From assembly GCA_019694315.1 (NCBI GenBank), contig JAIBCE010000005.1, positions 3,487 through 67,486 on the forward strand: a stretch of DNA of 64,000 nt, read 5' to 3'. This DNA comes from Sandaracinaceae bacterium (GTDB lineage Bacteria > Myxococcota_A > Polyangia > Polyangiales > Sandaracinaceae). The notes under the pieces are model-generated. The model saw only the letters and a list, made by a program, of their open reading frames with translations, was not told the DNA's origin and ran no database searches. Position 1 is the first letter of the stretch; every line of letters starts with the position of its first letter. The position numbers and the translations under genes are program-made. This document shows, piece by piece, positions 2,262-34,544 of this stretch.

Positions 2262-5300
<3,039 letters not shown>

Positions 5301-15439: not shown

Positions 15440-16506
15440 GCTACGGCCTCGTCCTCGTCCTCGCGCTGGCGCTCTTCGTGGTCGCGTCGATCGCGCACTA
15501 CGTGTTCTGGACGCGCCGTCTCGAGCGTCCGATGACCTACGCGCTGAGCGAGCGCCTCGAGACGCCCGACGGCGCCGCGATCGAGCTCCATCGCCTGCCG
15601 GGCGATGCGCCGACGAGCCCCATCCCCGTGCTGCTCGTGCACGGCGTGGGAATCGATCACCGCAACAACGACATGCTCCCCGAGGTCTCGCTCGCGCGTC
15701 ACCTGCGCGCGAGCGGCCGCGACGTGTGGCTCCTGCGCCTGCGGAGCGGCGGGATGTCGCGTGTGTTCAAGGACAAGAGGAAGGTGCGCTTCGCGCGCAT
15801 GGCCGAGCACGATCTGCCGCTCGGCGTGCGCGAGGTGCTCACGCGCACGGGCCAGCCGCACCTCGACTACGTGGGCTTCTCGATGGGCGGCATGCTCGCG
15901 TACGCCGCGATCGGCGCGCATCGCATCGATCCCGCGCTCCTTCGTCGCGTGGTGATCATCGGCTCGCCCGCGCGCGTGGGGCACTACGTGCCGTTCCGAC
16001 ATCTGCTCACGCGCCTGCCCGAGCCGCTCGTGCCCACGCTGCCGCTGCGTCTCGGCTCGCGCATGGTCGCGTTCGCGTCGGAGTGGATGACGACGCCCGT
16101 GCATCACCTCGTCTACAACCCGCGCAACGTGGAGCGCGGCCTCGCGGGCCCCGCGATGATGACGGTGGAGGACATCCCCGGTCCTCTCAACGTCGACTTC
16201 CTGAGCTTCATCCGCCGCGGCATCGTGCACTTCGAGGATCGCGACGTGATCGAAGGTCTCCGTCACGTGTCGATCCCGGTGCTCTTCTTCGCGGGCGAGC
16301 GTGACCGTCTCGCGCCGCCCGAGGCCGTGCGTGTGGCCTTCGACGCGTGGGGCGCCGACGCCGGCGAGGTCGACAAGCGCTTCGTGCTCCTCTCGGTGAA
16401 GGAGGGCGCGAGCGCCGACTACGGCCACGGCGATCTCGCGATCGGCCGCGCTGCCAAGCGCGACATCTTCGAGCCCATCGAGCGCTTCCTCACGCCCGCG
16501 GCGTAG
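15436..16506 (+). CDS. alpha/beta hydrolase with N-terminal membrane anchor
   Basis: The ATG at 15436 overlaps the upstream stop (ATGA). N-terminal TM (LVLVLALALFVVASIA). HG oxyanion region LLVHGVG. Nucleophile elbow GFSMGG. Confidence 0.7.
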   Translation: MSYGLVLVLALALFVVASIAHYVFWTRRLERPMTYALSERLETPDGAAIELHRLPGDAPTSPIPVLLVHGVGIDHRNNDMLPEVSLARHLRASGRDVWLLRLRSGGMSRVFKDKRKVRFARMAEHDLPLGVREVLTRTGQPHLDYVGFSMGGMLAYAAIGAHRIDPALLRRVVIIGSPARVGHYVPFRHLLTRLPEPLVPTLPLRLGSRMVAFASEWMTTPVHHLVYNPRNVERGLAGPAMMTVEDIPGPLNVDFLSFIRRGIVHFEDRDVIEGLRHVSIPVLFFAGERDRLAPPEAVRVAFDAWGADAGEVDKRFVLLSVKEGASADYGHGDLAIGRAAKRDIFEPIERFLTPAA

Positions 16507-16576
16507 CCGCACGCGCACGTCGCCTCCTGCGAGGTGACAGACAACCTCGCCCGCTCACTGTTACCCTCGCGGCGTC

Positions 16577-19500
16577 TTGGGGACGTCGTCGACCAACTTC
16601 GGCTTCCTGGTGGAGCACCACCCGCGCCTCGTGATGTTGGGGTCACAGGCCGAGCTGCTGTTCCACGTCGACCCGCCCGCCTCGATCACGAAGGTCCGCC
16701 TCCTCGCCGAGGACCTCGCGCAGCTCGCTGCCGCGCGCGCCGGCCTCTTCGTCGATCGCCGCGAAGCCCAGGTGGATCTGCTTCGGCGCCTCCGCGACAA
16801 AGGCCTCGTCACCGCGGACGTCCACGACGCCTTCCACGCGATCCGGAAGGCCGGCAACGCCGCCGCGCACGACAACGCCGGCACGAGCGGTGAGGCCCTC
16901 TCGCAGCTCCGCCTCGCGTTCGTGGTGTCGGTCTGGTTCCACCGCACGTTCTCGAAAGATCGGCTCACCTTCAAGCAGCCCGCGTTCGTCGTGCCGCGCC
17001 CGCCCGAGGACGCCGCCGCGCGTCTGCGCGCCGAGCTCTCCGCGCTGAAGAACGCGCTCGCCGTCGCGAACGCCACCGTCACCGCCACCAAGCAGACGGC
17101 CGAGCAGGCCAAGGCCGCGCGCGAGGCCCTCGAGGAGCAGCTCCGCGCGGAGCTCGACGACGCGAAGAAGAAGGCGCTCGAGGCCGACGAAGCGCGCCTC
17201 GCGGCGGAGGCCAAGGCCCAGCTCGAAGAGTCCGAGCGCCTCGCGGCGATGGCCCTCCTCGACGAGGTCGCCGCGCGCGAGGCCGCGCTCGCTGCGGATC
17301 TCGCGAAGCTCCAGGTCGCGAGCCTCGCGGCGCCCGAGCTCACCGCCGCCTTCGTCACCGCGGCCAACGACGTCACGGCCACCCTCGATCTCGACGAGGC
17401 CACCACACGCCGCCTCGTCGACGAGAAGCTCCGCGAGGCAGGCTGGGAGGTCGACAGCCAGACGCTTCGTCACGCCCTCGGCGCTCGCCCGCAGAAGGGC
17501 CGATACCTCGCGATCGCCGAGTGGCCCACGGAGAGCGGCCCTGCCGACTACGTGCTCTTCGCGGGCCTCGTGCCCCTGGCCATCGTCGAGGCCAAGCGCA
17601 GCAAGAAGAACGTGCCCGCCGTGCTCCAGCAGGCCGCGCGCTACGCGAAGGATCTGCTCGAGCTCGAGGGCCTGGACATCCCTCGCGCGGCCGACGGCGA
17701 GCCGGGCTTCCCCGAGGCCAGCCCGCCGCAGACCTCGGCGAAGAAGGCCAAGGCCGAGCACGGTCGCTTCCTCGTCCCGTTCCTCTTCGCGACGAACGGC
17801 CGGGCCTATCTGGCGCAGATCAAGGAGGCGAGCGGCATCTGGTTCCGCGACGCGCGCCGGCCCGAGAACCTCGCGCGCGCGCTCGATGGCTGGCACTCGC
17901 CGCAAGGGCTCCTCGGACTCCTGGGCCAGGACATCGCCGCCGCGAACGAGAAGCTCGAGCGCGAAGAGACTGACTATCTCGGCCTCAGGCCCTATCAGGT
18001 GCGGGCCATTCGCGCGGCCGAAGCTGCCATTGCCGAGGGCGCGCAGACAGCGCTCCTCGCGATGGCCACCGGCACGGGCAAGACGCGCACGTGCATCGGG
18101 CTCTGCTATCGCCTGCTCAAGACGGGCCGCTTCCGCCGCATCCTCTTCCTCGCGGACCGCACGGCCCTCACCACGCAGACGGAGGACGCCTTCCAGGAGG
18201 CGCGCCTCGAGCAACTGACCACCTTCGCGCAGAGCTACCAGGTCAAAGGGCCCAAGACACCCGAGGTCTCCGTCGGCGACACGAAGCTGCACATCGCCAC
18301 GGTGCAGAGCCTCGTCCGCGGGCTCTTGTACGGGCCCGACGACACGCCACCTCCGCCCGTCGACACCTACGACTGCATCGTCGTCGACGAGTGCCACCGC
18401 GGCTACACGCTCGATCGCGAGCTGTCCGAGGGGGAGCTGCTCTTCCGCGACGAGTCGGACTACCTCTCGAAGTACCGGCGGGTGCTCGAGCACTTCGACG
18501 CCGTGAAGATCGCGCTCACGGCCACGCCGGCCCTCCACACGCGGCAGATCTTCGGCGACCCGGTCTACACGTACTCGTACCGAGAGGCGGTGATCGACGG
18601 CTTCCTCGTCGATCACAGCCCGCCCACGCGCATCGTCACCGCGCTCGCGGAGGACGGCATCACGTTCAAGACGGGCGAGAAGGTCCCCGTCTACCAGCCG
18701 CGCACGCAGACGCAGCAGCTCGCGCTCCTGCCGGACGAGATCCAGCTCGAGATCGATCAGTTCCACCGCAAGGTGATCACGCGCCCGTTCAACGAGGCCG
18801 TGGCGCACGAGCTCGCCAAGCACATCGACCCGAGCCTGCCGGGCAAGACGCTCGTCTTCTGCGTGAACGATCTCCACGCGGACATGGTCGTGGACTGTCT
18901 CAAGCAGGCGTTCGTCGCGCGGTACGGCAGTGTGGAAGACGGCGCCGTCGAGAAGATCACGGGCTCGGTCGACCGCCCGCTCGAGGCCATCCGTCGCTAC
19001 CGCACGGACCGCCGGCCCTGCGTGGCCGTCACGGTGGATCTGCTGACGACCGGCGTGGACGTGCCCGAGATCGACAAGCTGGTGTTCCTGCGCCGGGTGC
19101 GGAGCCGCATCCTCTACGAGCAGATGCTCGGGCGCGCGACGCGCCTCTGTCCGGACCTGCACGGCGCGGGTCGGCCCAAGGAGGTCTTCCAGATCTTCGA
19201 CGCGGTCGATCTCTACGCGGCCCTCGCGAACGCGACGGATATGAAGCCGGTGGTCGTGGATCCGTCGCTGCGCTTCAAGGACCTGGTCGAGGATCTGAAG
19301 AGGCTGAAGGACGCCGCTCACATCGAGCACGTGCTCGGCGAGCTGGTGACGAAGCTCGCCCGCAAGGTGCGTCGTCTCGATGCGCGCATCGCCGAGCGTC
19401 TCGCGGACGAGCTCGGCCAGAGCCCCGAGGACCTGGTCCGCACGCTGCGGAGCGCGAGCCCCACCGACGCCCGAAAGCTCTGGCTGGATCACCACCCACA

Positions 19501-20128
19501 CCTCGCGGATCTGCTCGACGCGCGCCCCGCCGGCGACGGCATCGACGGTCTCTACGTCTCGCACCACGCCGACGAGGTGCGCCGCGTGGAGCAGGGCTAC
19601 GGGCCGGGGCGTCAGCGTCCGGAGGACTACCTGGATGGCTTCGCGAAGTACGTGCGCGAGCACCTGAACGACCTGCCCGCCCTGGTGGTGGTGACGCAGC
19701 GCCCCAAGGACCTGACGCGCGCGCAGCTGAAGGAGCTGCGATTGGCGCTCGACAAGGCCGGCTATCCCGAGTCCCACCTCCGCGCGGCCTGGGCGCAGCG
19801 CACGAACCAGGACATCGCCGCAAGCATCCTCGGCCACATCCGCCAGGCCGCCCTCGGCGACCCGCTCATCGACTACGACGAGCGCGTGAACCGAGCCCTC
19901 AAGAAGATCCTCGCCTCCCGCCCCTGGGACCCCACCCAGAAGAAGTGGCTCGAGCGCCTCGCCAAGCAGCTCCAGAAGGAGATCGTGGTCGACCGCGAGT
20001 CCCTCGACGCCGAAGGCAGCCTGTTCGCGGCGGAGGGCGGGTCGAAGAGGCTCGAGAAGGTGTTCGAGGGCCGGCTCGGAGAGGTTCTGTCGAATCTCAG
20101 CGAAGCCGCCTGGAGGGAGGGAGCATGA
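16577..20128 (+). CDS. hsdR: type I restriction enzyme R subunit (DUF4145-like N-terminus, coiled coil, nuclease, SF2 helicase, EcoEI_R_C-like tail)
   Basis: TTG start as in the track. N-terminal SNFGFL... module, an A/E/K-rich coiled coil, and a PD-(D/E)xK-like segment (DYVLF...IVEAKRS). Helicase motif I MATGTGKT and motif II VVDECHRG. hsdM/hsdS lie downstream. Confidence 0.85.
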   Translation: MGTSSTNFGFLVEHHPRLVMLGSQAELLFHVDPPASITKVRLLAEDLAQLAAARAGLFVDRREAQVDLLRRLRDKGLVTADVHDAFHAIRKAGNAAAHDNAGTSGEALSQLRLAFVVSVWFHRTFSKDRLTFKQPAFVVPRPPEDAAARLRAELSALKNALAVANATVTATKQTAEQAKAAREALEEQLRAELDDAKKKALEADEARLAAEAKAQLEESERLAAMALLDEVAAREAALAADLAKLQVASLAAPELTAAFVTAANDVTATLDLDEATTRRLVDEKLREAGWEVDSQTLRHALGARPQKGRYLAIAEWPTESGPADYVLFAGLVPLAIVEAKRSKKNVPAVLQQAARYAKDLLELEGLDIPRAADGEPGFPEASPPQTSAKKAKAEHGRFLVPFLFATNGRAYLAQIKEASGIWFRDARRPENLARALDGWHSPQGLLGLLGQDIAAANEKLEREETDYLGLRPYQVRAIRAAEAAIAEGAQTALLAMATGTGKTRTCIGLCYRLLKTGRFRRILFLADRTALTTQTEDAFQEARLEQLTTFAQSYQVKGPKTPEVSVGDTKLHIATVQSLVRGLLYGPDDTPPPPVDTYDCIVVDECHRGYTLDRELSEGELLFRDESDYLSKYRRVLEHFDAVKIALTATPALHTRQIFGDPVYTYSYREAVIDGFLVDHSPPTRIVTALAEDGITFKTGEKVPVYQPRTQTQQLALLPDEIQLEIDQFHRKVITRPFNEAVAHELAKHIDPSLPGKTLVFCVNDLHADMVVDCLKQAFVARYGSVEDGAVEKITGSVDRPLEAIRRYRTDRRPCVAVTVDLLTTGVDVPEIDKLVFLRRVRSRILYEQMLGRATRLCPDLHGAGRPKEVFQIFDAVDLYAALANATDMKPVVVDPSLRFKDLVEDLKRLKDAAHIEHVLGELVTKLARKVRRLDARIAERLADELGQSPEDLVRTLRSASPTDARKLWLDHHPHLADLLDARPAGDGIDGLYVSHHADEVRRVEQGYGPGRQRPEDYLDGFAKYVREHLNDLPALVVVTQRPKDLTRAQLKELRLALDKAGYPESHLRAAWAQRTNQDIAASILGHIRQAALGDPLIDYDERVNRALKKILASRPWDPTQKKWLERLAKQLQKEIVVDRESLDAEGSLFAAEGGSKRLEKVFEGRLGEVLSNLSEAAWREGA
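19861..20070 (+). repeat. direct repeat copy 1 (hsdR 3' end)
   Basis: 210 nt, nearly identical (about 7 mismatches by eye) to 21872-22081. Confidence 0.9.
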
Positions 20129-20150
20129 GCAGGGACGAGGTCGGGGCACG

Positions 20151-21176
20151 ATGACGACACCCACAACGTGGATGGTTCGGGCGGGTCGAGGCGGAGATCA
20201 GGTCGACGCCTTCCTGGCAGATGGCGTCGTCGGCATCGGGTACGGCGCGTCCGAGTTCAAGGGGCTGCCGCCGACACTCACGCGCGAGGCGATCGTGGCC
20301 GGAATGAAGGCTGCAAATCCCCACTGGTCCACGGCCAAGCTCGCCGTGATCTCGGGGCAACTCGTGCGCTTCGTGACGGAGATCAAGGCCGGGGACCGCA
20401 TCGTCACGGGCGACCCCGAGACGCGCACGTACTTCGTCGGTCGTGCCAGCGGGGAGCTCCGCTGGGAGGGTGGCAAGCCGCTGCCGATTCGGCGAGGCGT
20501 GAAGTGGACCGGGCGCGTGGCACGCGACGCCCTCAGCGTCTCCACGCTCAACACACTCGGCGCGATTCAGACCCTCTTCCGCATCTCCGACGAGGTCGCG
20601 GACGAGCTGGTCAAGTTCGAGCGCCCCATCACCGAAGAAGCTCCGCCACCTGCGCCCAAGGCTGAGCAGACGGCTCCCGCCGATGTCGTCCCGGCCGACC
20701 TGCTCGGCGCGCCGGAGCGGGCCAAGAGCTTCATCGACGACATGATCAACCGACTGGACTGGGACGAGCTCCAGGACCTCGTCGCAGGCGTGCTCCGGGC
20801 GATGGGCTACAAGACACGCGTGTCCACGCCCGGTCCGGATCGGGGAGTCGACATCTTCGCGTCACCCGACGGCCTCGGTCTGCAGGAGCCGCGCATCTTC
20901 GTCGAGGTGAAGCACCGCCAGGCCGCGATGGGAGCCCCCGACCTCCGCACGTTCCTTGGCGGTCGCAAGGCCGGCGACAAGTGTCTCTACGTGAGCACGG
21001 GCGGCTTCAAGAAGGACGCGCACTACGAGGCCGACCGATCGACGATTCCGATCACGCTGGTGACTCTTCCCGTGCTGCGAGACCTCCTCCTGGAGCACTA
21101 CGAGCGATTGGACGAGGAGACGAGAGCGCTCGTTCCTCTTCGGCGTGTTTACCTACCCTTCGATCCCAACGACTGA
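20151..21176 (+). CDS. Mrr-like restriction endonuclease (PD-(D/E)xK C-terminal domain, PUA/EVE-like N-terminal domain tentative)
   Basis: ATG at 20151. C-terminal Mrr_cat-like pattern: LQDLVAGVLRAMGY, GVDIFAS, IFVEVKH, YVSTGGF. The N-terminal WMVRAGRGG...GIGYG...AGDRIV pattern is common in restriction-endonuclease-annotated proteins. Confidence 0.7.
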   Translation: MTTPTTWMVRAGRGGDQVDAFLADGVVGIGYGASEFKGLPPTLTREAIVAGMKAANPHWSTAKLAVISGQLVRFVTEIKAGDRIVTGDPETRTYFVGRASGELRWEGGKPLPIRRGVKWTGRVARDALSVSTLNTLGAIQTLFRISDEVADELVKFERPITEEAPPPAPKAEQTAPADVVPADLLGAPERAKSFIDDMINRLDWDELQDLVAGVLRAMGYKTRVSTPGPDRGVDIFASPDGLGLQEPRIFVEVKHRQAAMGAPDLRTFLGGRKAGDKCLYVSTGGFKKDAHYEADRSTIPITLVTLPVLRDLLLEHYERLDEETRALVPLRRVYLPFDPND

Positions 21177-21198
21177 ACCACGCACAGGAGATCCACCG

Positions 21199-21840
21199 AT
21201 GTCAGGGGGCACGAACAAGGCGACTGCGAAGAAGCCCCGCGCACGCAAGCGCGGCAAGGGCATCTTCTGCCTCGAAGGGGATTGGTGGAACGACCTCAAC
21301 CAATCCGGCAGCGTGAAGCCCATGCTGGACCTGATCTCCGCCGGGGCAGACATCGCGGTTCCGTCGGTCCACCGCGACGTCGCGACGCGCGATGAGCTCG
21401 AGTTCTACCTGCGGAAGTGGGTCCAGGGTCGCTACAAGACGTATCCCCTCCTGTGTCTCGCGTTCCACGGCAGCGAAGGCGCGCTTCACCTCAGCGACGG
21501 GCGAAAGGCTGAGTCGACCGTCACGCTCGACGAGCTCGCCGAGCTCCTCGACGGGAAGTGCCACGGCCGCATCATCCACTTCGACGGTTGCTCCACGGTG
21601 GTCGGCGACGTTCGCCACCTCAAACGCTTCCTGCGCCAGACGGGCGCCCTGGCGGTCACCGGATTCACGAACGACGTGCCCTGGCTCGACGCCGCGGCCT
21701 TCGACATCCTGCTCTTTGCGACCTTCCAGCAGCAGGCCCTCACGCGCGGAGGGATGAAGGCAGTGAAGCGTCGCGTGTTCACGGAGCTCCGCGGCATGGC
21801 CAGAGAGCTCGGCTTCCGGATGGAGATCCGGCCCGAATGA
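21199..21840 (+). CDS. small (213 aa) protein with minimal CHAT/caspase-like His-Cys signature (tentative)
   Basis: ATG at 21199 with AGGAG 9 nt upstream. LLCLAFHGSEG (His90-Gly) and RIIHFDGCST (Cys131) lie 41 residues apart after hydrophobic strands. The following GALAVTGFTNDVPWLDAAAFDILLF resembles the CHAT C-terminal motif. Confidence 0.45.
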   Translation: MSGGTNKATAKKPRARKRGKGIFCLEGDWWNDLNQSGSVKPMLDLISAGADIAVPSVHRDVATRDELEFYLRKWVQGRYKTYPLLCLAFHGSEGALHLSDGRKAESTVTLDELAELLDGKCHGRIIHFDGCSTVVGDVRHLKRFLRQTGALAVTGFTNDVPWLDAAAFDILLFATFQQQALTRGGMKAVKRRVFTELRGMARELGFRMEIRPE

Positions 21841-22151
21841 ACCGCACGAGCAAACTGGCCGCCCTGGGGCACCCGCTCATCGACTACGACGAGCGCGTGA
21901 ACCGAGCCCTCGGGAAGATCCTCGCCTCCCGCCCCTGGGACCCCACCCAGAAGAAGTGGCTCGAGCGCCTCGCCAAGCAGCTCCAGAAGGAGATCGTGGT
22001 CGACCGCGAGTCCCTGGACGCCGAGGGGAGCCTGTTCGCGGCGGAGGGCGGGTCGAAGAGACTCGAGAAGGTGTCCGAGGGTCGACTTGACGAGGTACTG
22101 TCCGACCTCACCGGCAATGTCTGGCGGGCGGCGGAAGGAGCAGAAGCATGA
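21837..22151 (+). pseudogene. duplicated HsdR C-terminal (EcoEI_R_C-like) fragment; intact 104-aa ORF that could still be expressed
   Basis: The ATG at 21837 overlaps the upstream stop (ATGA). The translation (PLIDYDERVNRALGKILASRPWDPTQKKWLERLAKQLQKEIVVDRESLDAEGSLFAAEGGSKRLEKV...) is almost identical to the last ~90 aa of HsdR. Confidence 0.65.
21872..22081 (+). repeat. direct repeat copy 2 (hsdR 3' end)
   Basis: 210 nt, nearly identical to 19861-20070, offset 2011 nt. Confidence 0.9.
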
Positions 22152-22280
22152 TGCTTCACCGCGCGCTCACCGTGCAAAGGACAGGCCGATGACCAAGACA
22201 CAGAGCCACGTTGCCCTCGGCCACATTCTCGTCGTCGCCCCCCAGAGGGTCTCAGCCCCAGCGACGAGTACCTCGAGGCC

Positions 22281-23099
22281 ATGGCCTACGACCTCGTTGG
22301 CGCGGAACGCCCAAACGCGCTCGCGGAGCTCTTGAGGCACGCCGAGGGCTACTATCCGGTACTGCGGGAACTCCGCCGTATCGCGGCCCCGGGCAAACCA
22401 ATGTTCAAGGGAATCGACGTCGCGAGTGCCCGGGCGATCATTGTCGACGTCTTGCGCGCGCTCCTGGCGCGAGACGTGAGGGCCGTCGCCCCCAGCGCGC
22501 AGGTGCTCCTGTCCACGGATCCTCTCCTTGAGCAACTGAGCTGTGTTGATGGCACCTTCATTGCTGGAACGGCCTACGGCGCCCACCCTCTCAACCCCAC
22601 GACCTTCATTCCGCTGTCGGCCTTCCACACCTACCTTCTCGCGGAGAAGCGTGGCGAGTTCATGGCAATAGTGTCGGCTCTCGGGGCATCTGAACTGGCC
22701 CTCTCGGATGCCCAGTCGTCGAGGGAGCGATCCGGCGCGGACGCAGGCCTCCGCGAGCTGACGGGCCAAGCTCAGCTCGGTGTCAAGGCCGGACAGGGTT
22801 CGGGCAGCGCCGCAGCGTTTGACCTCTCCGCGCACTTCGGCCCTCCGCGGGGACCCATCGGGGTGCCGGACGGCATGCGTTGGGTTCGGCGGGAACCGAT
22901 GTGGCAGCGCATGATCGACGAGAGGCTCCAGCGAAACATCTTGTCTCTCGAGGTGGAGTTCACGTACGCGTCGGACTTCTCAATCAACGCTTCGCTCGCC
23001 GCGGTGCTCGAAGAAGTCGGCATCGGACTCGGGGGCACGTTCGAAGCAAGCGAAACGCTTCGCCAGACCTACCGCGTCGTCTTCCACGAGCGCACGTGA
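22281..23099 (+). CDS. hypothetical protein, 272 aa, no family recognised
   Basis: ATG at 22281 with GAGG 3 nt upstream. The frame shows coding-like third-position GC bias, but with more A/T-ending codons than the flanking core genes. Helical N-terminal half, Gly/Ser-rich linker, beta-like C-terminal half (SLEVEFTYASDFSINASL...). Confidence 0.6.
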   Translation: MAYDLVGAERPNALAELLRHAEGYYPVLRELRRIAAPGKPMFKGIDVASARAIIVDVLRALLARDVRAVAPSAQVLLSTDPLLEQLSCVDGTFIAGTAYGAHPLNPTTFIPLSAFHTYLLAEKRGEFMAIVSALGASELALSDAQSSRERSGADAGLRELTGQAQLGVKAGQGSGSAAAFDLSAHFGPPRGPIGVPDGMRWVRREPMWQRMIDERLQRNILSLEVEFTYASDFSINASLAAVLEEVGIGLGGTFEASETLRQTYRVVFHERT

Positions 23100-23218
23100 G
23101 CATCGCGAGCTCTCGGCACGAGACGCGCTTCGTGCGATCGTCTCGGCCTCGCATCACCAGACGCCAGCACACCGTTTGTGATCGTCGGTGCTCGTGTGAC
23201 GCGCCCCCGCCAGAGGCA

Positions 23219-23239
23219 GCCCGTCCAAGCCGGACGGGC
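23219..23239 (+). terminator. stem-loop downstream of the 272-aa gene
   Basis: GCCCGTCC-AAGCC-GGACGGGC: 8-bp GC stem with a 5-nt loop, 120 nt after the stop. No U tract. Confidence 0.35.
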
Positions 23240-23582
23240 GGACGACCGGGATCGACCGCCACGCCGTTGGGCTCGCGAAGGGGTCGCGACGCGCGACGGC
23301 GCAGGCGATCGACACCGTGATGACGGCGACCTACTTCGAGGTGGGGCCGTCGGATCGTCGAGGATGGGCAGCGGGGGGCCGAACGTGCGGGCTACGGGAC
23401 GCTGCTCCTCGGTCTGCGAGCGGGGAACCCACCGGGTCTGGGACTTCGTCGTTTCGTCGTTGCCCGCGAGGTAGCTCGCCGTGCGATCGTCGGGGGACCG
23501 AGTGAGCACGCAATTCCACACCATCGGTCGCAGTCTCGTGTTGCTCGAGATCGGCACGCCGCTTCGCGCGCTCGATCAAGGC

Positions 23583-24365
23583 ATGAGCAAGCCCATCCTC
23601 TTCGAGCTCGAGGGACCGGACGGGCCTGCGCATTGGGTCGTCAAGCCTCGGAGTCTCGATCGGCGTGGCGGTGACGGTCTCGTGTGCGAGGTCGCCGCTG
23701 CGGACATCGCCGTCGCCTTGGGTCTCCGGGTTCCAGCGATGGGGATGCTGGAGTTCCCGAGCGTGCCGCTCGAGGTCGAGACCTCCGAGCTCGGCCATCG
23801 GGTCGCGGAGGTCTACCGACGAGACGCGGGCGGGACAGCGTTCTGCTCGCGCTTCATCGAGGGCGGCGTCCACGCGGTGAGAGGGATGTTCGACGACCTC
23901 CGCTCTGTGCCGCTCGAGATGCAGGAGGATGCCGTCCGACTCTTCGCCCTCGACGTGTTGCTCCGACACTACGATCGAAGACCCGGCAATCCGAACCTGC
24001 TCGTCCACGAGGATCGCCTCGTGGTCATCGACCACGGGCACGCGTTCCACGGCATCGAGCAGGTGACGGAAGAGGGGCTCTCGAAGTTCGCTGACACCGA
24101 CCAAGACCAGGCCGCGCTCGCCGACCACGTCTGCGCGTCGGTGGCGGCCCGCGATCGCTACGAACACGTGTTCGACGACGTCCTCGCCCGTGTTCGTGCC
24201 CTCGACGACACGACGCTCGACCGCCTCGCGTCGGCCTGGCCGGACGCGTTGGATCGCTCGCCTGACGGCACCCCCTCGGGTATGCGATCGTCCGTCGTCG
24301 CTGCCCTGCGAGCCAGGCGCGACGCGTTCCCGTCCCTCTTGAGGTCTGTCCGTGCCGCCCTCTAA
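23583..24365 (+). CDS. HipA-like / PI3-4-kinase-fold protein kinase
   Basis: ATG at 23583. Catalytic-loop-like LLRHYDRRPGNPNLLV and metal-binding-like VVIDHGHAF, as in the HipA_C family. Confidence 0.55.
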   Translation: MSKPILFELEGPDGPAHWVVKPRSLDRRGGDGLVCEVAAADIAVALGLRVPAMGMLEFPSVPLEVETSELGHRVAEVYRRDAGGTAFCSRFIEGGVHAVRGMFDDLRSVPLEMQEDAVRLFALDVLLRHYDRRPGNPNLLVHEDRLVVIDHGHAFHGIEQVTEEGLSKFADTDQDQAALADHVCASVAARDRYEHVFDDVLARVRALDDTTLDRLASAWPDALDRSPDGTPSGMRSSVVAALRARRDAFPSLLRSVRAAL

Positions 24366-25179
24366 AGCCGAATACCGGATCTTCTCCGCGAGCGCCGACC
24401 CCCTCGGGGAGGAGCGCTACCCGCTGGCGTTGGTCCACTGGGACGGGACGGAGCTCCGGTATGCGGCGCGTGATCGTGTGCCCAGCGCTCTGGAGAAGGA
24501 GGAGCGTGCGCTCGCTCGTGTTCTTCGCGCGATGCGTCGCCGTGTACGCGAGCTCCCGGCGACGCAGCTCGACATGGGCCTCGACACGATCTTCGACGTC
24601 CGCGCCGGTGATGGCGGGGCGACGGCGTGGTCGACGAAGCGGATCGCGATGACGCGTGACGCTGCGGATCACTTCTCGCGGCTCGTCTCGGACCTGCACC
24701 TCGCACAGCTCCGCGACGCGGCTTCGTCCATCGGGCGCGCCGAGGTGGTCGACGCGGTGCACACCCTCGGGACGCTGTTGGCGAAGACGCACCGGAACGT
24801 TCACCCCGATCACACGGTGCACGAGTTCGATCAGCTGCGATCGCCCATGTCCTGGCTCAACGGCTCCTGGGTGCACACGGTGCCCCTCGTCGTGTCGTCG
24901 ACCGTGGGCGCTCACGAGGCGGTCAGGAAGGTGGCGGCGACTCTCGAGCTCGCCGTGCCCCGCAAGCATCGCCTCGTCGTCGCGTACCCGACGCCGGCGG
25001 ACGACTCGGTCGGACGCGAGCTGCTGCGCGGCGTGGCTCATCTCGCGACGAACAATCCGCCGGAGGACGGCGACACGGCTCGCGTTCGGGGGGTCGCGCT
25101 TCCGCTCACGGCGGACGACGAGATCGACACGTCCGCGCTGCAGACGCTCGTGCTCGCCGAGCTTCGCACCGCGCCCTGA
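24352..25179 (+). CDS. DUF3037-like protein (tentative), partner of the HipA-like kinase
   Basis: The GTG at 24352 overlaps the kinase gene by 14 nt. The N-terminal YRIFSASADPLGEERYPLALVHWDG resembles the DUF3037 N-terminal pattern. Assigned from memory of the family and its known pairing with HipA-like kinases. Confidence 0.4.
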   Translation: MPPSKAEYRIFSASADPLGEERYPLALVHWDGTELRYAARDRVPSALEKEERALARVLRAMRRRVRELPATQLDMGLDTIFDVRAGDGGATAWSTKRIAMTRDAADHFSRLVSDLHLAQLRDAASSIGRAEVVDAVHTLGTLLAKTHRNVHPDHTVHEFDQLRSPMSWLNGSWVHTVPLVVSSTVGAHEAVRKVAATLELAVPRKHRLVVAYPTPADDSVGRELLRGVAHLATNNPPEDGDTARVRGVALPLTADDEIDTSALQTLVLAELRTAP

Positions 25180-25249
25180 TTCGTCGCCGTCCGCGGGTCG
25201 ATCTTCGCGCCGCGAAGCGTGGGGTTCGTGCGATCGTCCGGGCCGTCCG

Positions 25250-26698
25250 ATGACCACCACCAACGACATCGTTCAGAAGCTCTGGTCGCTCTGTCACGTC
25301 CTTCGGGACGATGGGATCACGTACCACCAGTACGTGACGGAGCTGACGTGGCTGCTCTTCCTCAAGATGGCCAAGGAGACGAACCGGGAGGAGCAGCTGC
25401 CCAAGGGGTATCGGTGGGATGACCTGACGCAGCTCGATGGGGTGCCGCTCCTCACGTTCTACCGGCAGCTCCTCCTGCACCTCGGCACGGCGTCGGGGCC
25501 GAAGGGGCCGTCGAAGCGGGTGCAGGCGATCTTCTCGAACGCGGCGACCTCCATGAAGGAGCCGCGGAACCTCAAGAAGCTCGTCACCGACATCGACGCC
25601 CTCGACTGGTACTCCGCCAAGAGCGAGGGCCTGGGCGACCTCTACGAAGGCCTGCTCGAGAAGAACGCGAGCGAGAAGAAGTCCGGCGCGGGGCAGTACT
25701 TCACGCCGCGGCCACTCATCGACGCGATGGTCGAGGTCGTCCAGCCGCAGCCCAAGGAGCGCGTCGAGGACCCGGCCGCGGGCACCGCGGGCTTCCTCAT
25801 CGCCGCGGACCGCTACATCAAGGCGCACTCGAACGACCTCTTCGATCTCGACGAGGCCACGGCGCGCTTCCAGCGGCAGAAAGCGTTCTACGGCGTCGAG
25901 CTCGTGCCCGACACGCACCGCCTCGCGCTCATGAACCTGCTCCTCCACGGCATCGACAGCGACCTCGAGCTCGGCGACGCGCTCTCGAACCTCGGCAAGG
26001 ACCTGCCCAAGGCGAACGTCATCCTCACGAACCCGCCCTTCGGCACCAAGAAGGGCGGAGGCCTGCCCACGCGCGATGACTTCACCTTCCCCACGAGCAA
26101 CAAGCAGCTCGCCTTCCTCCAGCACATCTACCGCGGCCTCGAGCCCGGCGGCCGCGCGGCGGTGGTGCTGCCCGACAACGTGCTCTTCGAGGAGAACGTT
26201 GGGACGAAGATCCGCGAGGACCTGATGGAGAAGTGCGATCTCCACACCATCCTCCGCCTGCCCACCGGCATCTTCTACGCGCAGGGCGTGAAGACGAACG
26301 TGCTCTTCTTCACGCGCGGCGAGCACGGCAAGGATCGCGGCCAGACCAAGGCCGTGTGGGTCTACGACATGCGCGCGAACATGCCGAGCTTCGGCAAGCG
26401 CACACCGCTGGGCCCCGAGCACTTCGAGCCGTTCATCAAGGCCTTCGGCAAGAACCCGTACGGCCAGAGCAAGCGCAAGGACGAGGGCGAGGAGGGCCGC
26501 TTCCGGAAGTTCACGCGCGACGAGATCAGGAAGCGCGGCGACAACCTCGACATCAGCTGGCTCAAAGACGAGAACGCGACCTCGCACGACGACCTCGGCG
26601 AGCCCGAGGAGATCGCCACCGAGATCATGACGAAGCTCCAGCTCGCCATGGACGAGATCGAGTCCCTCCAACGAGTGCTACGGGGGGAGGAGTCGTGA
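25250..26698 (+). CDS. hsdM: type I R-M N6-adenine DNA methyltransferase subunit
   Basis: ATG at 25250. HsdM_N-like IVQKLWSLCHVLRDDGI. SAM motif DPAAGTAGFL. Catalytic NPPFG. Confidence 0.9.
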   Translation: MTTTNDIVQKLWSLCHVLRDDGITYHQYVTELTWLLFLKMAKETNREEQLPKGYRWDDLTQLDGVPLLTFYRQLLLHLGTASGPKGPSKRVQAIFSNAATSMKEPRNLKKLVTDIDALDWYSAKSEGLGDLYEGLLEKNASEKKSGAGQYFTPRPLIDAMVEVVQPQPKERVEDPAAGTAGFLIAADRYIKAHSNDLFDLDEATARFQRQKAFYGVELVPDTHRLALMNLLLHGIDSDLELGDALSNLGKDLPKANVILTNPPFGTKKGGGLPTRDDFTFPTSNKQLAFLQHIYRGLEPGGRAAVVLPDNVLFEENVGTKIREDLMEKCDLHTILRLPTGIFYAQGVKTNVLFFTRGEHGKDRGQTKAVWVYDMRANMPSFGKRTPLGPEHFEPFIKAFGKNPYGQSKRKDEGEEGRFRKFTRDEIRKRGDNLDISWLKDENATSHDDLGEPEEIATEIMTKLQLAMDEIESLQRVLRGEES

Positions 26699-28387
26699 GC
26701 GACAGCTTCGAACTGCAGCACCACCCACTGAACATCGACTCCCCCCCAGAGGGGTGGCACGTGATGGCCATTCGCGCGGTGCTCACCGAGGCCCAACCCG
26801 GCTACGCGTCGGGGGGAGCATGGCCGAGACTCGTCAGGCCTCATTCACTTGCGTCCGATGAACGTGACCACGGACGGGGAGATCGATCTAACGGACGTTC
26901 GAAGCGTTGAGGCCACTGGGGACCAGCGCCGGATCGGACCTGGGGAGATCCTCTTCAACAACACCAACAGCCCTGCCCTCGTCGGCAAGACGGCGCTTGT
27001 TCGGAGCGGCCCCCTCCGGGCGTTCTCGAATCACATGACCCGGCTGGTTACGAGTCCGGACGTCGCGCCGGGCTTCTTGGCCTATCAGCTTCAGCACTTG
27101 TTCAAGTCGGGCTACTTTCGGCAGTTGTGCAAGAAGCACGTGAATCAGGCGAGCATCGCTACCACCACCCTCTTGGACTCCGTCCCCGTTCTGGTCCCCG
27201 ACAGGCCGGAACAGGATCGCATCGTCGCCAAGCTCGACGCGCTGCGGGCACGCAGTCGTGGCGCGAGGGAGGCGCTCGACGCGGTGCCCGCGCTGCTCGA
27301 CCGGCTGCGTCAGTCCATCCTCGCCGCCGCGTTCCGAGGCGACCTCACGGCCGACTGGCGCGAAGCGAACCCCGACGTCGAGCCCGCGTCCGAGCTCCTG
27401 AAGCGCATCCGCATCGAGCGCCGCAAGCGCTGGGAGGAGGCCGAGCTCGCGAAGATGGTCGCCAAGGGCAAGCCCCCCAAGGACGACCGCTGGAAGTCGA
27501 AGTACGTCGAGCCCGAGCCCGTCGACGAGAGCGACCTGCCGGAGTTGCCCGAGGGCTGGTGCTGGGCGAGCGTCGAGGGAGTGTGTGACCTGCAGCTTGG
27601 GCAGCAGCGTTCCCCAGAGCACGCTGCAGCCGAAGTGACTCTTCCCTACGTGCGCGCCGCGAACATCACCTGGACCGGGCTGGACCTCTCCGACGTGAAG
27701 GAGATGGGCTTCCCGGATCCCGAACGCTATCGTCTACGCGTCGGCGATGTCCTGCTCAGTGAGGCGTCCGGGAGCGCTACGGAAGTAGGAAAGCCAGCGA
27801 TCTGGCGCGGCGAGATCCCCAATTGCTGCTACCAGAAGACGCTTCTGCGTGCTCGACCGTTCGAATCCACGATGGGGAGTGAATGGCTCCATCTGTGTTT
27901 CCTCGCTGACGCCATCCTCGGGCGATTTGCAGCGATGGCTCCAGGAGTCGGCATCCTGCATCTCACAGCTGACCGAATGAGCTCGTGGCCAGTTCCGATG
28001 GCGCCGGTCGACGAGCAGACACGCCTCGTCGAAAGCGTCCGAAGCGCTTTGGCTACTGTGGCCGCGTTGGAAGAGACCGCCGCCAACCTCGGGGCGTCGA
28101 CCGCGGCTCTTGACGCGTCGGCGCTCGCGAAGGCCTTCCGCGGCGAGCTGCTGAGTCCGCTATCGCGCGAAGAGGAGGCGTACTCGCTCGGGGGCGCGGA
28201 CGAGGCCGAGGTCCTTGCGTTCGTCCGTCGCGTCATCGAGGAGGACGGTGACATCGAAAGTGGGCTCGTCCACAGTCTCCACATGGTCGGGGCTGCTGGA
28301 GCGGATAAGGTCGAGGCCGAGCGGCGTCGGTTCTTCAAGGAGCGGGGGATGCGGGTTCCGCGGATGAAGGGCGGCGCACAGGAGTGA
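26695..28387 (+). pseudogene. hsdS: type I R-M specificity subunit, reading frame broken at a G6 tract (26811-26816)
   Basis: The GTG at 26695 overlaps the hsdM stop (GTGA). The N-terminal 39 codons (..PPEGWHVMAIRAVLTEAQPGYASG) continue in the -1 frame as EHGRDSSGLIHLRPMNVTTDGEIDL... if one G is removed. The rest is a typical two-TRD HsdS with a central coiled coil. Confidence 0.8.
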
Positions 28388-28414
28388 GATGCGGTGAGTC
28401 GAGGAGAATGGTGC

Positions 28415-29212
28415 TCACGAGCCCCGCTCCCCTCGCCAGCCGCATTGATCGCGCACCCCGCACCGGGTGCACCGGGGTTTCTCCTCCAGGCAGATGCCCT
28501 TCGCGAGCCCGAACTCCTCCGTCTCGACCTGACCGTACGCGACGAGCACCCGGTCCACGCGCCGCATGCTTGCGCCCGCCTCCGACGCCATGCGTTGTCC
28601 GATCTGGATGGCGCGGAAGTACCGGTTCGTGTCGTCCACGAGGCGCAGACGATGGAAGATCCGCATGATCACGCGGTCTGGTTTCAGCACGTTGAGACCC
28701 AGGTCCGTCATGAAGTGGTAGACCGTGATGCCGCCGAGGTACTCGAACTCCGCTTCGAGGTCCTCCTTGAGCACGAGCAGGTCCGAAAGCGCGCCGTCGC
28801 CGATGCGGTCGCGAAGGTATGCGGAGAACGACCCGCACCTCGTGACGATCGCGGCCACTGTCTTTGCGTTCGCGATGCAGGCCTCGACTTTCCGGCGATG
28901 CCCGATCATCGCCGAGTCGTCGACGATGCGGTCGACGTCTCCAGGTCCATACTCGCGGGCAACTCTCCAATCCCCCAGGTGTTTCAGGATGGTTTCTCGT
29001 TTTGCGGTGACCGTCGCGGCCTTGAAGCCGGAGTAGAAGACGACCATCACCAGCTTCTGGAACAACGCATCGTCCGAGTCGTCGAGCCCTGCCCGCCCAA
29101 CCTCTCGCTCGATAGTCGCCTCGATGTCGGGCTGGGACGTTCGGCACTCCTCGATCAGACTGCGCTCGATCGCACGAAAGATGTCGCCCACGTTCGTGTC
29201 CCTGGCCGTCAT
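28415..29212 (-). CDS. Tag-like (3-methyladenine DNA glycosylase I family) HhH glycosylase with C-terminal C-x6-C-x2-C-x5-C motif
   Basis: 265 aa. LFQKLVMVVFYSGFKAATVTAKRETI...IGHRRKVEACIANAK and YLGGITVYHFMTDLGL align by eye with E. coli Tag segments. The C-terminal CLEEKPRCTRCGVRDQC matches EndoIII/MutY Fe-S cluster spacing. Confidence 0.6.
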   Translation of the reverse strand: MTARDTNVGDIFRAIERSLIEECRTSQPDIEATIEREVGRAGLDDSDDALFQKLVMVVFYSGFKAATVTAKRETILKHLGDWRVAREYGPGDVDRIVDDSAMIGHRRKVEACIANAKTVAAIVTRCGSFSAYLRDRIGDGALSDLLVLKEDLEAEFEYLGGITVYHFMTDLGLNVLKPDRVIMRIFHRLRLVDDTNRYFRAIQIGQRMASEAGASMRRVDRVLVAYGQVETEEFGLAKGICLEEKPRCTRCGVRDQCGWRGERGS

Positions 29213-29428
29213 AGGTCGACTCTACGCGCGATCACCGTTTCGGCGCGACCTGAACGTGCGCCTCTGACCTCTGCCGCCGGCGTGCGGCGGATGCGATCGC
29301 CTCGGCGTGCATCGTCGCGGTGGCCGGGCCCTCACCCTAGCCCTCTCCCGCCTGCGGGAGAGAGGACTCTGCGGCGCGGCCACCGACGTCACGGTCTCTC
29401 TCCAAGCAGGATGATCTCCGAAGAGCGG

Positions 29429-29570
29429 GCAGCTGGCTGCTCTGCTGGTGGTCGTCGGACCGCTGGTGGGGCAACTGGCTGCTCTGCAGGGGGTCGCTCG
29501 ACCGTGACCTGGGGTAGCTGGCTGCTCGGGTGTGACGACGCGACACATGTGGCGGGCAGCTGGGCGATCT
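29429..29570. repeat. degenerate ~42-43 nt periodic repeat (3-4 copies) in a divergent promoter region
   Basis: GCAGCTGGCTGCTCTGCT (29429), GCAACTGGCTGCTCTGCA (29471), GTAGCTGGCTGCTCGGG (29514) and GGCAGCTGGGCG (29556). Confidence 0.5.
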
Positions 29571-29587
29571 CGAAGGAGCTCGTCGAG

Positions 29588-30193
29588 ATGCGCGAGCTCC
29601 CGGTCACCGACCTCACCTCGCTCGTGAACGGCAAGCGCGTGGACGCGACCGTGCTCGCGGGCCTGCGCGGCAGCGTCGGGTTCCGCAACCAGGTCACCGA
29701 CGTCGTGCAGCTCACTGCCATCTTCCGTCGGCACTGGGAGAGCGTGCGCGCGACGACGCCGGTCACGATCGACGACCTCGAGCGCGCCGAGACGCTCGCG
29801 ACGAAGCTCACGCAGCTGCTCGGGATGCGCGAGCAAGGCAGCCTCGAGGCGTCGGGCGTCGGCGAGATGCGCCAGCGCGCGTTCTCGAAGTTCGTCCACA
29901 CCTACGATCAGCTGCGCCGCGCGATGACCTTCCTCCGCTGGGACGAGGGCGACGTCGACTCCGTGATCCCCTCGCTCTGGGCCGGTCGCGGTGGCCGCGG
30001 CAAGCGCACCGAGGTCGAGGTCGCCAAGGACGAGACCAAGAGTGGCGAGACCAAGAGTGGCGAGACCAAGAGTGGCGAGACCAAGAGTGGCGAGACCAAG
30101 AAGGCAGAGCCCAAGAGTGGCGAGCCCAAGAGTGACGAGCCGCCGATGGACGACCTCCGGGGTCTTCCGCCGCCGTTCATCGAGGGGGTCTGA
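29588..30193 (+). CDS. hypothetical protein with C-terminal ETKSG pentapeptide repeats
   Basis: ATG at 29588 with AAGGAG 9 nt upstream. 201 aa, with a K/E-rich repetitive tail. Confidence 0.55.
   Translation: MRELPVTDLTSLVNGKRVDATVLAGLRGSVGFRNQVTDVVQLTAIFRRHWESVRATTPVTIDDLERAETLATKLTQLLGMREQGSLEASGVGEMRQRAFSKFVHTYDQLRRAMTFLRWDEGDVDSVIPSLWAGRGGRGKRTEVEVAKDETKSGETKSGETKSGETKSGETKKAEPKSGEPKSDEPPMDDLRGLPPPFIEGV
30032..30091 (+). repeat. perfect 15-nt tandem repeat x4 (GAGACCAAGAGTGGC), followed by degenerate copies to ~30140
   Basis: Read directly from the sequence. In frame; encodes (ETKSG)4 and then ETKKAEPKSGEPKSDEP. Confidence 0.9.
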
Positions 30194-30776
30194 TCATGCA
30201 TCGCGACCCTCGATCCCTGAGTACAGCGCCCCGCGAGTTCGTGACCAGCTCCGGGCCGGCGGGGCGCTGGACTCGATTGGGAGGGGGCCCCGACGAATTC
30301 ACTTCGGCGGGGGAGGGTCTGGGACAGACCCTCGGCAAGAAACGGCGAAGTACCTTCCCCAGAAGGCCGGTCACAGACTTCTGGGAAACGGTACTGAGCA
30401 CGCACGAGAGGCTCGGACGTGGGCTCTGTCGGCGCAGGAGCCGGCGAGAGTGCGGACGAAGGACCCGAAGGAGGCGAAACGGTCGGCCGTGGTGACCCGT
30501 GAAGGGTCTCGACGCCGCGCAGACTCGAGCGAGGGCTCAGGTGCCCACCTCCTCACGCTCGTCCGTCGTCGGGGTGATCCCCCGACCCTCGCGCCACCCC
30601 CGTGCCGCGAGCGGAGAGGGGTCGAGAGCGTCGAGAGCCCCTCGCGAGAGGAGTGGGCGGGCGTGCGCGGGGCTCCCCTCGTGCCCGCCAGGGGAGACGG
30701 TCCGGCCGACCGCGAGGACCGTGTGCTCGGTGACGGTGCTCGGTGCCCCACGCGTCTCTGAGCATCGCGCCGCGAG

Positions 30777-31265
30777 TCAGCCGATCGACACGATCACCTC
30801 GTCGCCCTCGTCGCGCGCCTCGCGGTAGAAGTCGGTCAGCTCGGCGACGAGCTCCGCGAGGTGATGGTGCTCGTCCTCGAGCATGTCCTCGTCCCCGCCG
30901 AACCCCTCCTCGCGCAGGAGCTGCTCCACGGCAGGGTCGATGTCCGGCGGGCGTCGGCCGTAGGCGCCGTGCACCTCGAGCGTCGCGAGCAGCGGCAGGC
31001 GAGCGCGGATCGTCGCCTCGTCGAGAGAGACGAGCGCCTCGGCGATCGCCTCGATGCGCGCACGCGACAGACACCGCGAGGGGCCGAAAGCGCCGTGGGG
31101 CTCGCACGCCCGACCGCCGCGACCCGTGACCGCGTCGCCGATCCCGCCGGGCACGCCGCGTCCTCCGGTGAGCAACACCTCGAGCGCGTCCCATGCCTTG
31201 TCGAGGCGAAGCCTCCGCGTCGAGCCGCGCGCGGGCCGTGCGATCAGCGTGCACCGAATGCCCAT
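30777..31265 (-). CDS. YfbM/DUF1877 family protein
   Basis: ATG at 31265, 162 aa. The N-terminal MGIRCTL..., internal LDKAWDALEVLLTG and C-terminal ...EVIVSIG resemble E. coli YfbM (LDIDKRWDFLHFGLTG ... LTVIVG). Confidence 0.55.
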   Translation of the reverse strand: MGIRCTLIARPARGSTRRLRLDKAWDALEVLLTGGRGVPGGIGDAVTGRGGRACEPHGAFGPSRCLSRARIEAIAEALVSLDEATIRARLPLLATLEVHGAYGRRPPDIDPAVEQLLREEGFGGDEDMLEDEHHHLAELVAELTDFYREARDEGDEVIVSIG

Positions 31266-31311
31266 GGTGTCTCCCAGGACCGAAAAGAACCGATTCCAGA
31301 GCTGTCGTCGA

Positions 31312-32400
<1,089 letters not shown>

Positions 32401-32468
32401 GGCGGCGATGGTACCCACAAAGCGCTCCGCCTCGTCATGCCTCCGTGGCGCTTCGTGTCCGACTTCAG

Positions 32469-34495: not shown

Positions 34496-34544
34496 GGCCT
34501 CAGGTGTCGCTTGCCGCAGCCCAGCGCGCGGCGAAGATCCGCGC

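Follow-up and report, generated by a model that had tools for sequence, protein, structure and literature searches.

The 64-kb stretch of DNA analyzed here (the window, to which all gene coordinates refer) carries a Type I restriction-modification (R-M) operon in which hsdR (16577–20128) and hsdM (25250–26698) are separated by 5.1 kb of cargo, encoded entirely on the + strand. This is probably a chromosomal Type I R-M locus of a Sandaracinaceae-like myxobacterium, in which the hsdR/hsdM junction serves as a slot where immunity-type modules, including a HipA–DUF3037-like pair, have been stacked by stepwise acquisition. Since the G+C content of the window is about 70%, lists of its open reading frames (ORFs) are full of spurious frames, and genes were therefore called by combining third-position GC with profile searches, in which the window proteins were run against Pfam, NCBIfam and the single-model library (hidden Markov models, HMMs) of PADLOC. 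Our calls agree with those on record JAXLYW010000014.1 (GCA_046351195.1, a Sandaracinaceae metagenome-assembled genome, MAG).

An initial annotation, made from the sequence alone, had placed the end of hsdR at 20128, the start of hsdM at 25250 and same-strand cargo between them, and the profiles confirmed both coordinates and identities. It had counted five ORFs in this interval; their common + strand held, but their number did not, as we found six (five full-length genes plus a copy of the hsdR tail) together with further gene remnants. The Mrr-like nuclease, the hsdR tail fragment, the unknown protein of 272 amino acids (aa) and the HipA-like kinase with its partner, all named there, were recovered. 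The features of the locus are the following (nt, nucleotides):

16577–20128, + strand: hsdR, Type I restriction subunit (NCBIfam NF008521, PADLOC REase_I, Pfam)
20151–21176, + strand: first cargo gene, 341-aa Mrr_cat (PD-(D/E)XK) nuclease (Pfam, PADLOC)
21199–21840, + strand: second cargo gene, 213-aa (213/231-aa) DUF6642 protein (Pfam DUF6642, 3e-22)
21857–22151, + strand: first scar, copy of the last ~95 codons of hsdR (EcoEI_R_C positions 75–160)
22281–23099, + strand: third cargo gene, 272-aa near-orphan protein (coding-like GC pattern)
23131–23142 (within 23129–23148), + strand: copy 1 of the 12-mer CGTGCGATCGTC, 32 nt past the stop of the 272-aa gene
23285–23411, + strand: second scar, 127-nt remnant of a DUF1016/YhcG PD-(D/E)XK gene (nucleotide identity to the related locus L004)
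23480–23491, + strand: copy 2 of CGTGCGATCGTC, 22 nt before the probable HipA_2 start
23481–24365, + strand: fourth cargo module, HipA_2 family Ser/Thr kinase (PDC-M66A; Pfam HipA_2, PADLOC)
24352–25179, + strand: fourth cargo module, 275-aa kinase partner (14-nt overlap with the kinase gene)
25227–25238, + strand: copy 3 of CGTGCGATCGTC, 23 nt before the hsdM start
25250–26698, + strand: hsdM, Type I methyltransferase subunit (N6_Mtase, HsdM_N, MTase_I)
26695–28387, + strand: hsdS, specificity subunit with two target-recognition domains (TRDs), frameshifted

Among the core genes, hsdR scored 1421 bits against NF008521 (cutoff 729) and 1.5e-240 against REase_I, and its product comprises an N-terminal DUF4145 domain, a ResIII/SWI2_SNF2 helicase and an EcoEI_R_C tail. 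The hsdM product matched N6_Mtase (Pfam, 3.8e-77) and MTase_I (PADLOC, 4e-220), with HsdM_N also present. The start codon of hsdS, GTG 26695, overlaps the hsdM stop. As the initial annotation had noticed, hsdS is frameshifted: the frame is lost (+1) in or near a G6 run at 26811–26816 through one extra G, while both TRDs are present. With one G deleted, the frame is continuous and encodes an HsdS of 563 aa, the N-terminal TRD sequence of which is as expected. A true mutation, phase variation or a sequence error in the MAG could account for the frameshift.

We also determined the G+C content at third codon positions (GC3) gene by gene. Against a background of 0.886 ± 0.027 (n = 21 background genes), GC3 was lower by about 2–4 standard deviations (SD) in the Mrr (0.83), 272-aa (0.78) and HipA_2 (0.82) genes, in hsdS (0.81) and in a DNA glycosylase gene beyond it (0.84), in line with the excess of A/T third positions that had previously been judged by eye. 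The DUF6642 (0.87) and 275-aa partner (0.86) genes stayed within about 1 SD of the background, and values of 0.93 and 0.95 were found for hsdR and hsdM, respectively. The coding pattern GC3 > GC1 > GC2 was observed in hsdR, hsdM and the five full-length cargo ORFs, all of which are intact.

As already remarked for the edges of the locus, integrases, transposases and tRNAs are missing: the scans detected no tRNA in the 64-kb window and no integrase or transposase domain among the cargo or flanking genes. Att-like flanking repeats were not found either, the sole long direct repeat being the hsdR tail copy. An origin as an integrative mobile element was rejected on these grounds. In addition, Rfam gave no match at E ≤ 0.1 across 16000–35500, and a promoter scan detected no sigma-70-like sites; terminator-like sites were uninformative in such GC-rich DNA.

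To place this arrangement among its relatives, 80 genomic loci around HsdM homologues (61–91% identity; designated here by L numbers) were compared, with hsdR, hsdM, hsdS and the cargo placed by tblastn. In 74 of these loci hsdR precedes hsdM, and the gap between the hsdR stop and the hsdM start was distributed as follows:

gap under 150 bp (empty): 25 of 74 loci
gap of 150–700 bp: 12 of 74 loci
gap of 0.7–5.2 kb: 37 of 74 loci

The junction is thus a variable cargo slot and not a conserved block, since the 25 empty loci stand beside 37 that carry 0.7 kb or more of cargo, most of it unique. The 5.1-kb gap of the window is among the three largest of the 74. In an all-against-all blastp comparison, the 85 ORFs from gaps of at least 300 bp were almost all singletons. 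The empty site and the module turnover for which the initial annotation had recommended a synteny comparison were both found. That annotation had also named two outcomes as contrary to its proposal, namely a vertically conserved block of native composition and cargo made up of housekeeping families; the comparison was run and yielded neither. Cargo genes as obligatory R-M subunits were likewise rejected, given that 25 of the 74 homologous loci have no cargo at all.

A family census of the 58 largest of the 85 ORFs recovered AAA_21/AAA_15 ATPases (PtuA, HEC-01/02, AriA and GajA-like; OLD/PtuA-like), Fic with DUF4172, GmrSD, YhcG/DUF1016, DUF559, DUF4268, DUF4357, Schlafen AlbA_2, CdiA_C, T5orf172/DUF4041, HipA_C and PDDEXK_4, with one MerR, one GGDEF and one Sel1 protein as single cases. 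No integrase, transposase or housekeeping enzyme was present among the census families listed. Judged by their profile matches, the cargo families of the relatives are typical of defense. The earlier suggestion of a nested defense island at an insertion hotspot is supported by this variable slot, by the defense-type cargo of the 74 loci and by the lower GC3 of most cargo genes compared with the host genes, and the genes of the island are putative defense genes.

Even the closest relative, L004 (HsdR 85%, HsdM 91%), has a different slot content, in which a 189-aa ORF, a Sel1 protein and a partner gene are accompanied by a GGDEF gene in antisense orientation, an ORF of 114 aa, a 5′ fragment of hsdM and a nuclease of the DUF1016/YhcG family. 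The slot of L005 holds an Mrr protein, a homologue of the partner and an AAA_21 ATPase (HEC-02A). The modules move independently, as seen from their single occurrence and their other positions in relatives.

A separate observation concerns L033, where the terminal 63 nt of hsdR recur at 4834–4896 (96.8%) and the first 34 nt of hsdM at 5834–5867 (97%). These copies enclose a segment of ~1 kb that looks like a displaced former slot; the hsdR/hsdM junction, 5 kb downstream of this segment, is otherwise empty.

The first cargo protein matched Mrr_cat (5.9e-22) and, across residues 1–336 of 341, the PADLOC model PDC-S02 (PDLC04819, 4.1e-73); from these matches it is probably a modification-dependent, Type IV-like restriction enzyme. 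Homologues with 27–52% identity occupy four different positions: L005 has one in the slot, L080 one immediately upstream of hsdM, L057 and L025 one each beyond the end of hsdS, and L037 one upstream of hsdR.

The label of the second cargo protein had to be changed. The initial annotation had described it as CHAT-like; however, no CHAT or Peptidase_C14 profile matched it even at E ≤ 10, and DUF6642 alone was reported. Two DUF6642 members have the motifs ‘AxHGS’ and ‘xCS’ in common, followed by GAxA(V/I)TGFTxDVxW, and the HG and C motifs recall the caspase/CHAT His-Cys dyad, a resemblance at motif level only. A single-sequence AlphaFold2 (AF2) model was unusable (predicted local distance difference test, pLDDT, of 40). 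An ‘abortive infection family protein’ is encoded ~1.3 kb away from one plasmid-borne DUF6642 homologue, and a literature search for DUF6642 found no paper.

The third cargo gene is coding-like (GC3 0.78 vs. GC2 0.49), and its 272-aa product had no match in Pfam, NCBIfam or PADLOC. A word-indexed search of 5.8 billion sequences returned one remote match (26% identity), which adjoins a Gp49/HTH (helix-turn-helix) toxin-antitoxin pair. Two further remote matches are plasmid-borne, one of them from Planktothrix. There, on plasmid p3 of Planktothrix agardhii (L099, 1816–8710), a 354-aa relative lies between a Type III-like methyltransferase (MTase_III, 1.9e-152) and a helicase-type restriction enzyme of the BPTD_3080 family, overlapping the gene of the latter (res) by 4 nt. 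A site-specific integrase is encoded just upstream of this tight three-gene operon. The presence of the 272-aa family inside two R-M types fits ‘guilt by embedding’ and fits a role as an R-M accessory too.

The fourth module starts with a HipA_2 family kinase (HipA_2, 1e-13; PDC-M66A, 8.6e-18), the true start of which is likely GTG 23502, in agreement with the starts called in L003 and L086. Its VVK, DR..N.N and IDHG motifs were invariant in an alignment with kinases that adjoin annotated DUF3037 genes. A HipA-family kinase together with a DUF3037 protein constitutes the PADLOC candidate PDC-M66 (PMC12548924, PMC13092281). In a retron-adjacent operon, the HipA–DUF3037 pair defends alone, and deletion of the kinase abolishes defense while deletion of DUF3037 is toxic (PMC12548924). 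Further, DefensePredictor work validated such a pair as DS-6 (renamed HipAD), in which DS-6A is the kinase and DS-6B combines DUF3037 and DUF1829; a catalytic mutant of DS-6A lost defense (PMC13092281). A literature search on the name HipAD retrieved unrelated papers only.

As in HipA–DUF3037 systems, the kinase with its intact motifs lies upstream and an overlapping gene for a two-domain partner of ~280 aa lies downstream (275 aa here, compared with the 281 positions of the PDC-M66B model). An exhaustive profile search showed that the partner belongs to a family of ~118 clusters at 50% identity, mostly of 260–290 aa, and also collected proteins of 115–140 aa that match the N-terminal domain only. 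Of 54 family members compared with Pfam, none matched DUF3037, the sole match being a marginal one to DUF6417 (E = 0.01). PDB sequence searches with the partner, the 272-aa protein, DUF6642, HipA_2 and Mrr likewise returned no meaningful match.

A confident AF2 model of the partner built with the family alignment has two domains (pLDDT 93.4; predicted template-modeling (TM) score, pTM, 0.81). When compared by hhalign with a six-sequence DUF3037 alignment, the N-terminal domain aligned end to end (119 columns, E 1.2e-4, probability 55%). In Foldseek searches of viral models, the partner was matched over its full length at E values of 1e-9, 1e-6 and 5e-4. The last of these matches is annotated as a DUF1828-domain (phage) protein; MmcB-like proteins and PD-(D/E)XK nucleases follow. 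The modeled C-terminal domain, with the order alpha-beta-beta-beta-alpha-beta, has a restriction-endonuclease-like fold, in which a conserved SP(L/M)SW-x-N-x2-W-x-H occupies the place where a D...(D/E)xK triad is expected. Taken at the level of profiles and model, these results are suggestive of remote homology, the partner being a divergent DUF3037/DUF1829-like protein and the counterpart of DS-6B, and of a kinase–partner pair that is a variant of the HipA–DUF3037 system, although strict membership at HMM level fails. We propose that the partner is an antitoxin or a regulator.

The pair was also followed through the related loci. In L086 it is the only slot cargo, in the order hsdR-kinase-partner-hsdM-hsdS; in L087 it lies upstream of hsdR (kinase-partner-hsdR), and in L066 a pair with 36% and 25% identity is found ~3 kb downstream of hsdS. 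Kinase and partner are also adjacent on the short contigs L088, L089, L090 and L003, and a metagenome scan with a closer partner alignment added two short loci only. The partner gene of L004 has 86% nucleotide identity, with homology bounded by the gene ends, and neither in L004 nor in L005 did the sequence preceding the partner gene contain any trace or remnant of a kinase. A partner without a kinase is what a toxin-antitoxin pair predicts, because loss of the toxin is harmless and loss of the antitoxin is not; the pair would thus follow toxin-antitoxin logic, for which the 14-nt gene overlap, the invariant kinase motifs and the published deletion and mutant phenotypes also speak.

Downstream of hsdS in L086 (9317–10788), we also observed two overlapping genes that may be another kinase–partner module: the 238-aa product of one gave a weak, PI3_PI4-kinase-like match, and the 252-aa product of the other gave none.

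The persistence of an antitoxin-like partner without its kinase in L004 and L005 would also suit a different explanation, in which addiction modules, selfish modules or R-M accessories make up the cargo, the pair being a plain toxin-antitoxin system that stabilizes the locus and the 272-aa protein an R-M accessory or regulator. The relative of the latter in a tight mod-X-res operon, with its 4-nt overlap with res, points the same way, and the 12-mer upstream of HipA_2 and of hsdM could be a shared operator. However, HipA–DUF3037 pairs defend against phage (PMC12548924, PMC13092281), and the homologous R-M loci without cargo show that the cargo is not a required subunit. We regard this explanation as unlikely, and addiction and defense are not mutually exclusive.

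The slot of the window also contains traces of how it may have been assembled. In the first scar, 21857–22113 is 92.2% identical to 19846–20102, and the duplicate spans 257–295 nt. Its first ~230 nt are 94% identical to 19846–20077, whereas the ~60 nt at the 3′ end, which carry their own stop, are only about 51% identical; since their 3′ ends diverge, the two hsdR tails look like different alleles. The copy starts 17 nt past the DUF6642 stop. Because the source is a MAG, and because a break in the independent contig L003 falls within the repeat, at 22031, as expected for a branch in an assembly graph, we considered whether the assembler had joined two strain variants via the repeated hsdR tail. 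The junction at 21840–21857, however, joins two unique sequences rather than repeat to repeat, and a repeat-mediated chimera cannot create such a junction. The tail copies also differ by 8%, with different 3′ ends, and a similar scar, a copy of the hsdM head, exists in the independent relative L004. An assembly artifact is therefore very improbable.

The second scar, the YhcG remnant, corresponds at 84% identity to an interior part of the intact L004 gene, which adjoins hsdM upstream. The third trace is the 12-mer CGTGCGATCGTC, which includes a CGATCG palindrome and occurs three times in the 64 kb, always inside the island, vs. 0.14 copies expected; no shuffle reached three. Copy 1 extends to a 20-nt stretch (23129–23148) that is 90% identical to the hsdM leader at 25225–25244. 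Either a shared operator or leader or a scar of duplication could explain this repeat. A mirror-image scar was observed in L004, where 168 nt from the 5′ end of its own hsdM recur upstream of YhcG (97.6%), and further fragments of hsd ends are present in L033 and L049.

Such fragments could also be expected if the locus were decaying, that is, if the R-M system and its surroundings were inactivated genes and the cargo ORFs functionless remnants. The hsdS frameshift, the hsdR tail fragment, the YhcG remnant, the eroded copy of the hsdM leader and the partner genes that have no kinase in L004 and L005 are all consistent with decay. Against it stand the intact hsdR, hsdM and five full-length cargo ORFs with their GC3 > GC1 > GC2 coding pattern, the invariant catalytic motifs of the kinase and the end-to-end match of Mrr to PDC-S02. 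The frameshift, moreover, concerns one base of a homopolymer in a MAG sequence, and could stem from sequencing error or phase variation. Decay of the locus as a whole thus appears improbable to us.

The scars rather suggest that the modules were stacked step by step, by recombination for which hsd sequences served as the anchor. Diverged hsd loci would have recombined repeatedly and so have built the stack, the crossover on one side falling in conserved hsdR or hsdM sequence and the join on the opposite side being illegitimate. This process, homology-facilitated illegitimate recombination, has been described for natural transformation in Acinetobacter and pneumococcus. It would be the simplest model, and would leave behind the hsdR tail copy, the YhcG remnant and the hsdM leader repeats: a one-sided anchor in hsdR or hsdM with a non-homologous join would give partial duplications of gene ends, as seen here and in L004. 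Unlike in the transformation cases, the mechanism is read here from the scars only. Under this model, the arrangement hsdR-kinase-partner-hsdM, as in L086, would represent an earlier state of the locus, and the Mrr–DUF6642 segment would have been brought in along with a new 3′ end for hsdR that took the place of the resident tail.

In the explanation that we favor, the slot would hold four modules, namely the Mrr-type nuclease, the DUF6642 protein, the 272-aa near-orphan and the HipA_2 kinase with its 275-aa partner, which share the orientation of the operon and are probably transcribed together with it. The kinase pair most likely works like HipA–DUF3037 (DS-6/PDC-M66), in which case the partner would restrain a toxic kinase until infection frees it, leading to arrest or death of the cell (abortive infection).

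Several observations weigh against this explanation. Unlike in HipA–DUF3037 systems, the partner had no match to Pfam DUF3037 (E ≤ 10), to DUF1829 or to PDC-M66B (E ≤ 1), a model that bona fide DUF3037 proteins do match at positions 3–128; it forms a separate, uncurated family, known here from sequence and model. The profile–profile probability of its relationship to DUF3037 is no more than 55%, its matches to PDB folds are weak (best E 3e-3, TM about 0.3; Can2/Card1, NucS/EndoMS and restriction endonucleases), and the canonical D...(D/E)xK motif is missing from its C-terminal domain. PDC-S02 is a candidate rather than a validated system, and a defense role for DUF6642 and the 272-aa protein has contextual support only, given also that the Planktothrix relative could be an integral R-M accessory and not an independent system. 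As regards assembly of the stack, duplication of the hsdM leader in the slot was found at this locus and in none of the other related loci. Finally, part of the locus may be decaying, in view of the frameshifted hsdS and three gene remnants, and both the G-run frameshift and the DUF6642/hsdR-tail junction depend on the assembly of a MAG.

Beyond the operon, the DNA glycosylase that the initial annotation had described as abutting its end is located at 28415–29212 on the − strand, convergent with hsdS and 28 nt after it. It is Tag/HhH-like (Adenine_glyco 8e-15, PADLOC OGG 4e-14), and its C-terminus carries C-x6-C-x2-C-x5-C, the spacing of an EndoIII/MutY-type iron-sulfur loop. No homologue was found in the 80 related loci, which makes the glycosylase another variable gene at the operon edge. 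The flanking genes are rsmG/GidB, DUF4185, GAF and hydrolase genes on one side, and genes for a GETHR-repeat protein, DUF1877 and a glycosyltransferase on the other. A 229-aa ORF at 29504–30193 contains a 15-nt tandem repeat in 7 copies (30031–30139) that encodes GETKS pentapeptides (Pfam GETHR). Between the glycosyltransferase gene (31312–32400, − strand) and an OmdA-domain gene (34128–35117, + strand), a non-coding tandem array of ~2 kb (32443–34524) comprises about 12 copies of units of ~155–166 nt that are 63–93% identical; Rfam gave no match to it at E ≤ 0.1.

The combination of a Type I R-M system with an Mrr-type nuclease at a variable chromosomal locus, with no obvious mobility genes, resembles the immigration control region of E. 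coli K-12, where Type IV genes flank the hsd operon (mrr-hsdRMS-mcrBC). Unlike in K-12, the Mrr-like gene is placed here between hsdR and hsdM. Nesting of this kind is already documented. Type I R-M, BREX and DISARM systems often hold embedded genes (‘guilt by embedding’), as reported by Payne et al., who catalogued 17,432 embedded genes, derived 145 PDC systems and considered that a single embedded instance warrants follow-up; PrrC, the classic case from the EcoprrI hsd operon, is found almost exclusively inside Type I R-M (10.1101/2024.01.29.577857).

In line with those embedded genes, the junction studied here holds co-oriented genes that are neither R-M, mobility nor housekeeping genes and that vary among homologous systems, and two of them match PDC models from that study (PDC-S02 and PDC-M66A). 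Unlike in the cases of Payne et al., the text of which does not mention recombination, at least four modules are stacked in one junction with recombination scars, and the 272-aa protein, the 275-aa partner and DUF6642 match no PADLOC model. The locus is therefore a well-resolved further example rather than a new principle, and the gain is incremental because the principle that embedded genes are likely defense genes was already established. What it adds is a stack of unusual depth in which the scars are legible, a HipA_2 pair with a partner that escapes current models, and two uncurated or uncharacterized families.

The locus provides a clean example of an R-M operon becoming a multi-layer defense island without integrases, and offers three clonable candidates: the HipA_2 kinase with its missed partner, the near-orphan found inside two R-M types, and the DUF6642 protein. 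Should the kinase pair act as DS-6/HipAD does, a partner family of divergent sequence would be added to the known system, and the PADLOC and DefenseFinder models could be updated. More tentatively, and with some doubt on our part, the 272-aa family and the 275-aa partner family (the latter as a new class of HipA_2 antitoxin or sensor) might be new immunity components, and the duplications of hsd ends might mark a general, integrase-free route of stacking. If so, homology-anchored illegitimate recombination would stack defense genes in R-M operons without any mobile-element machinery.

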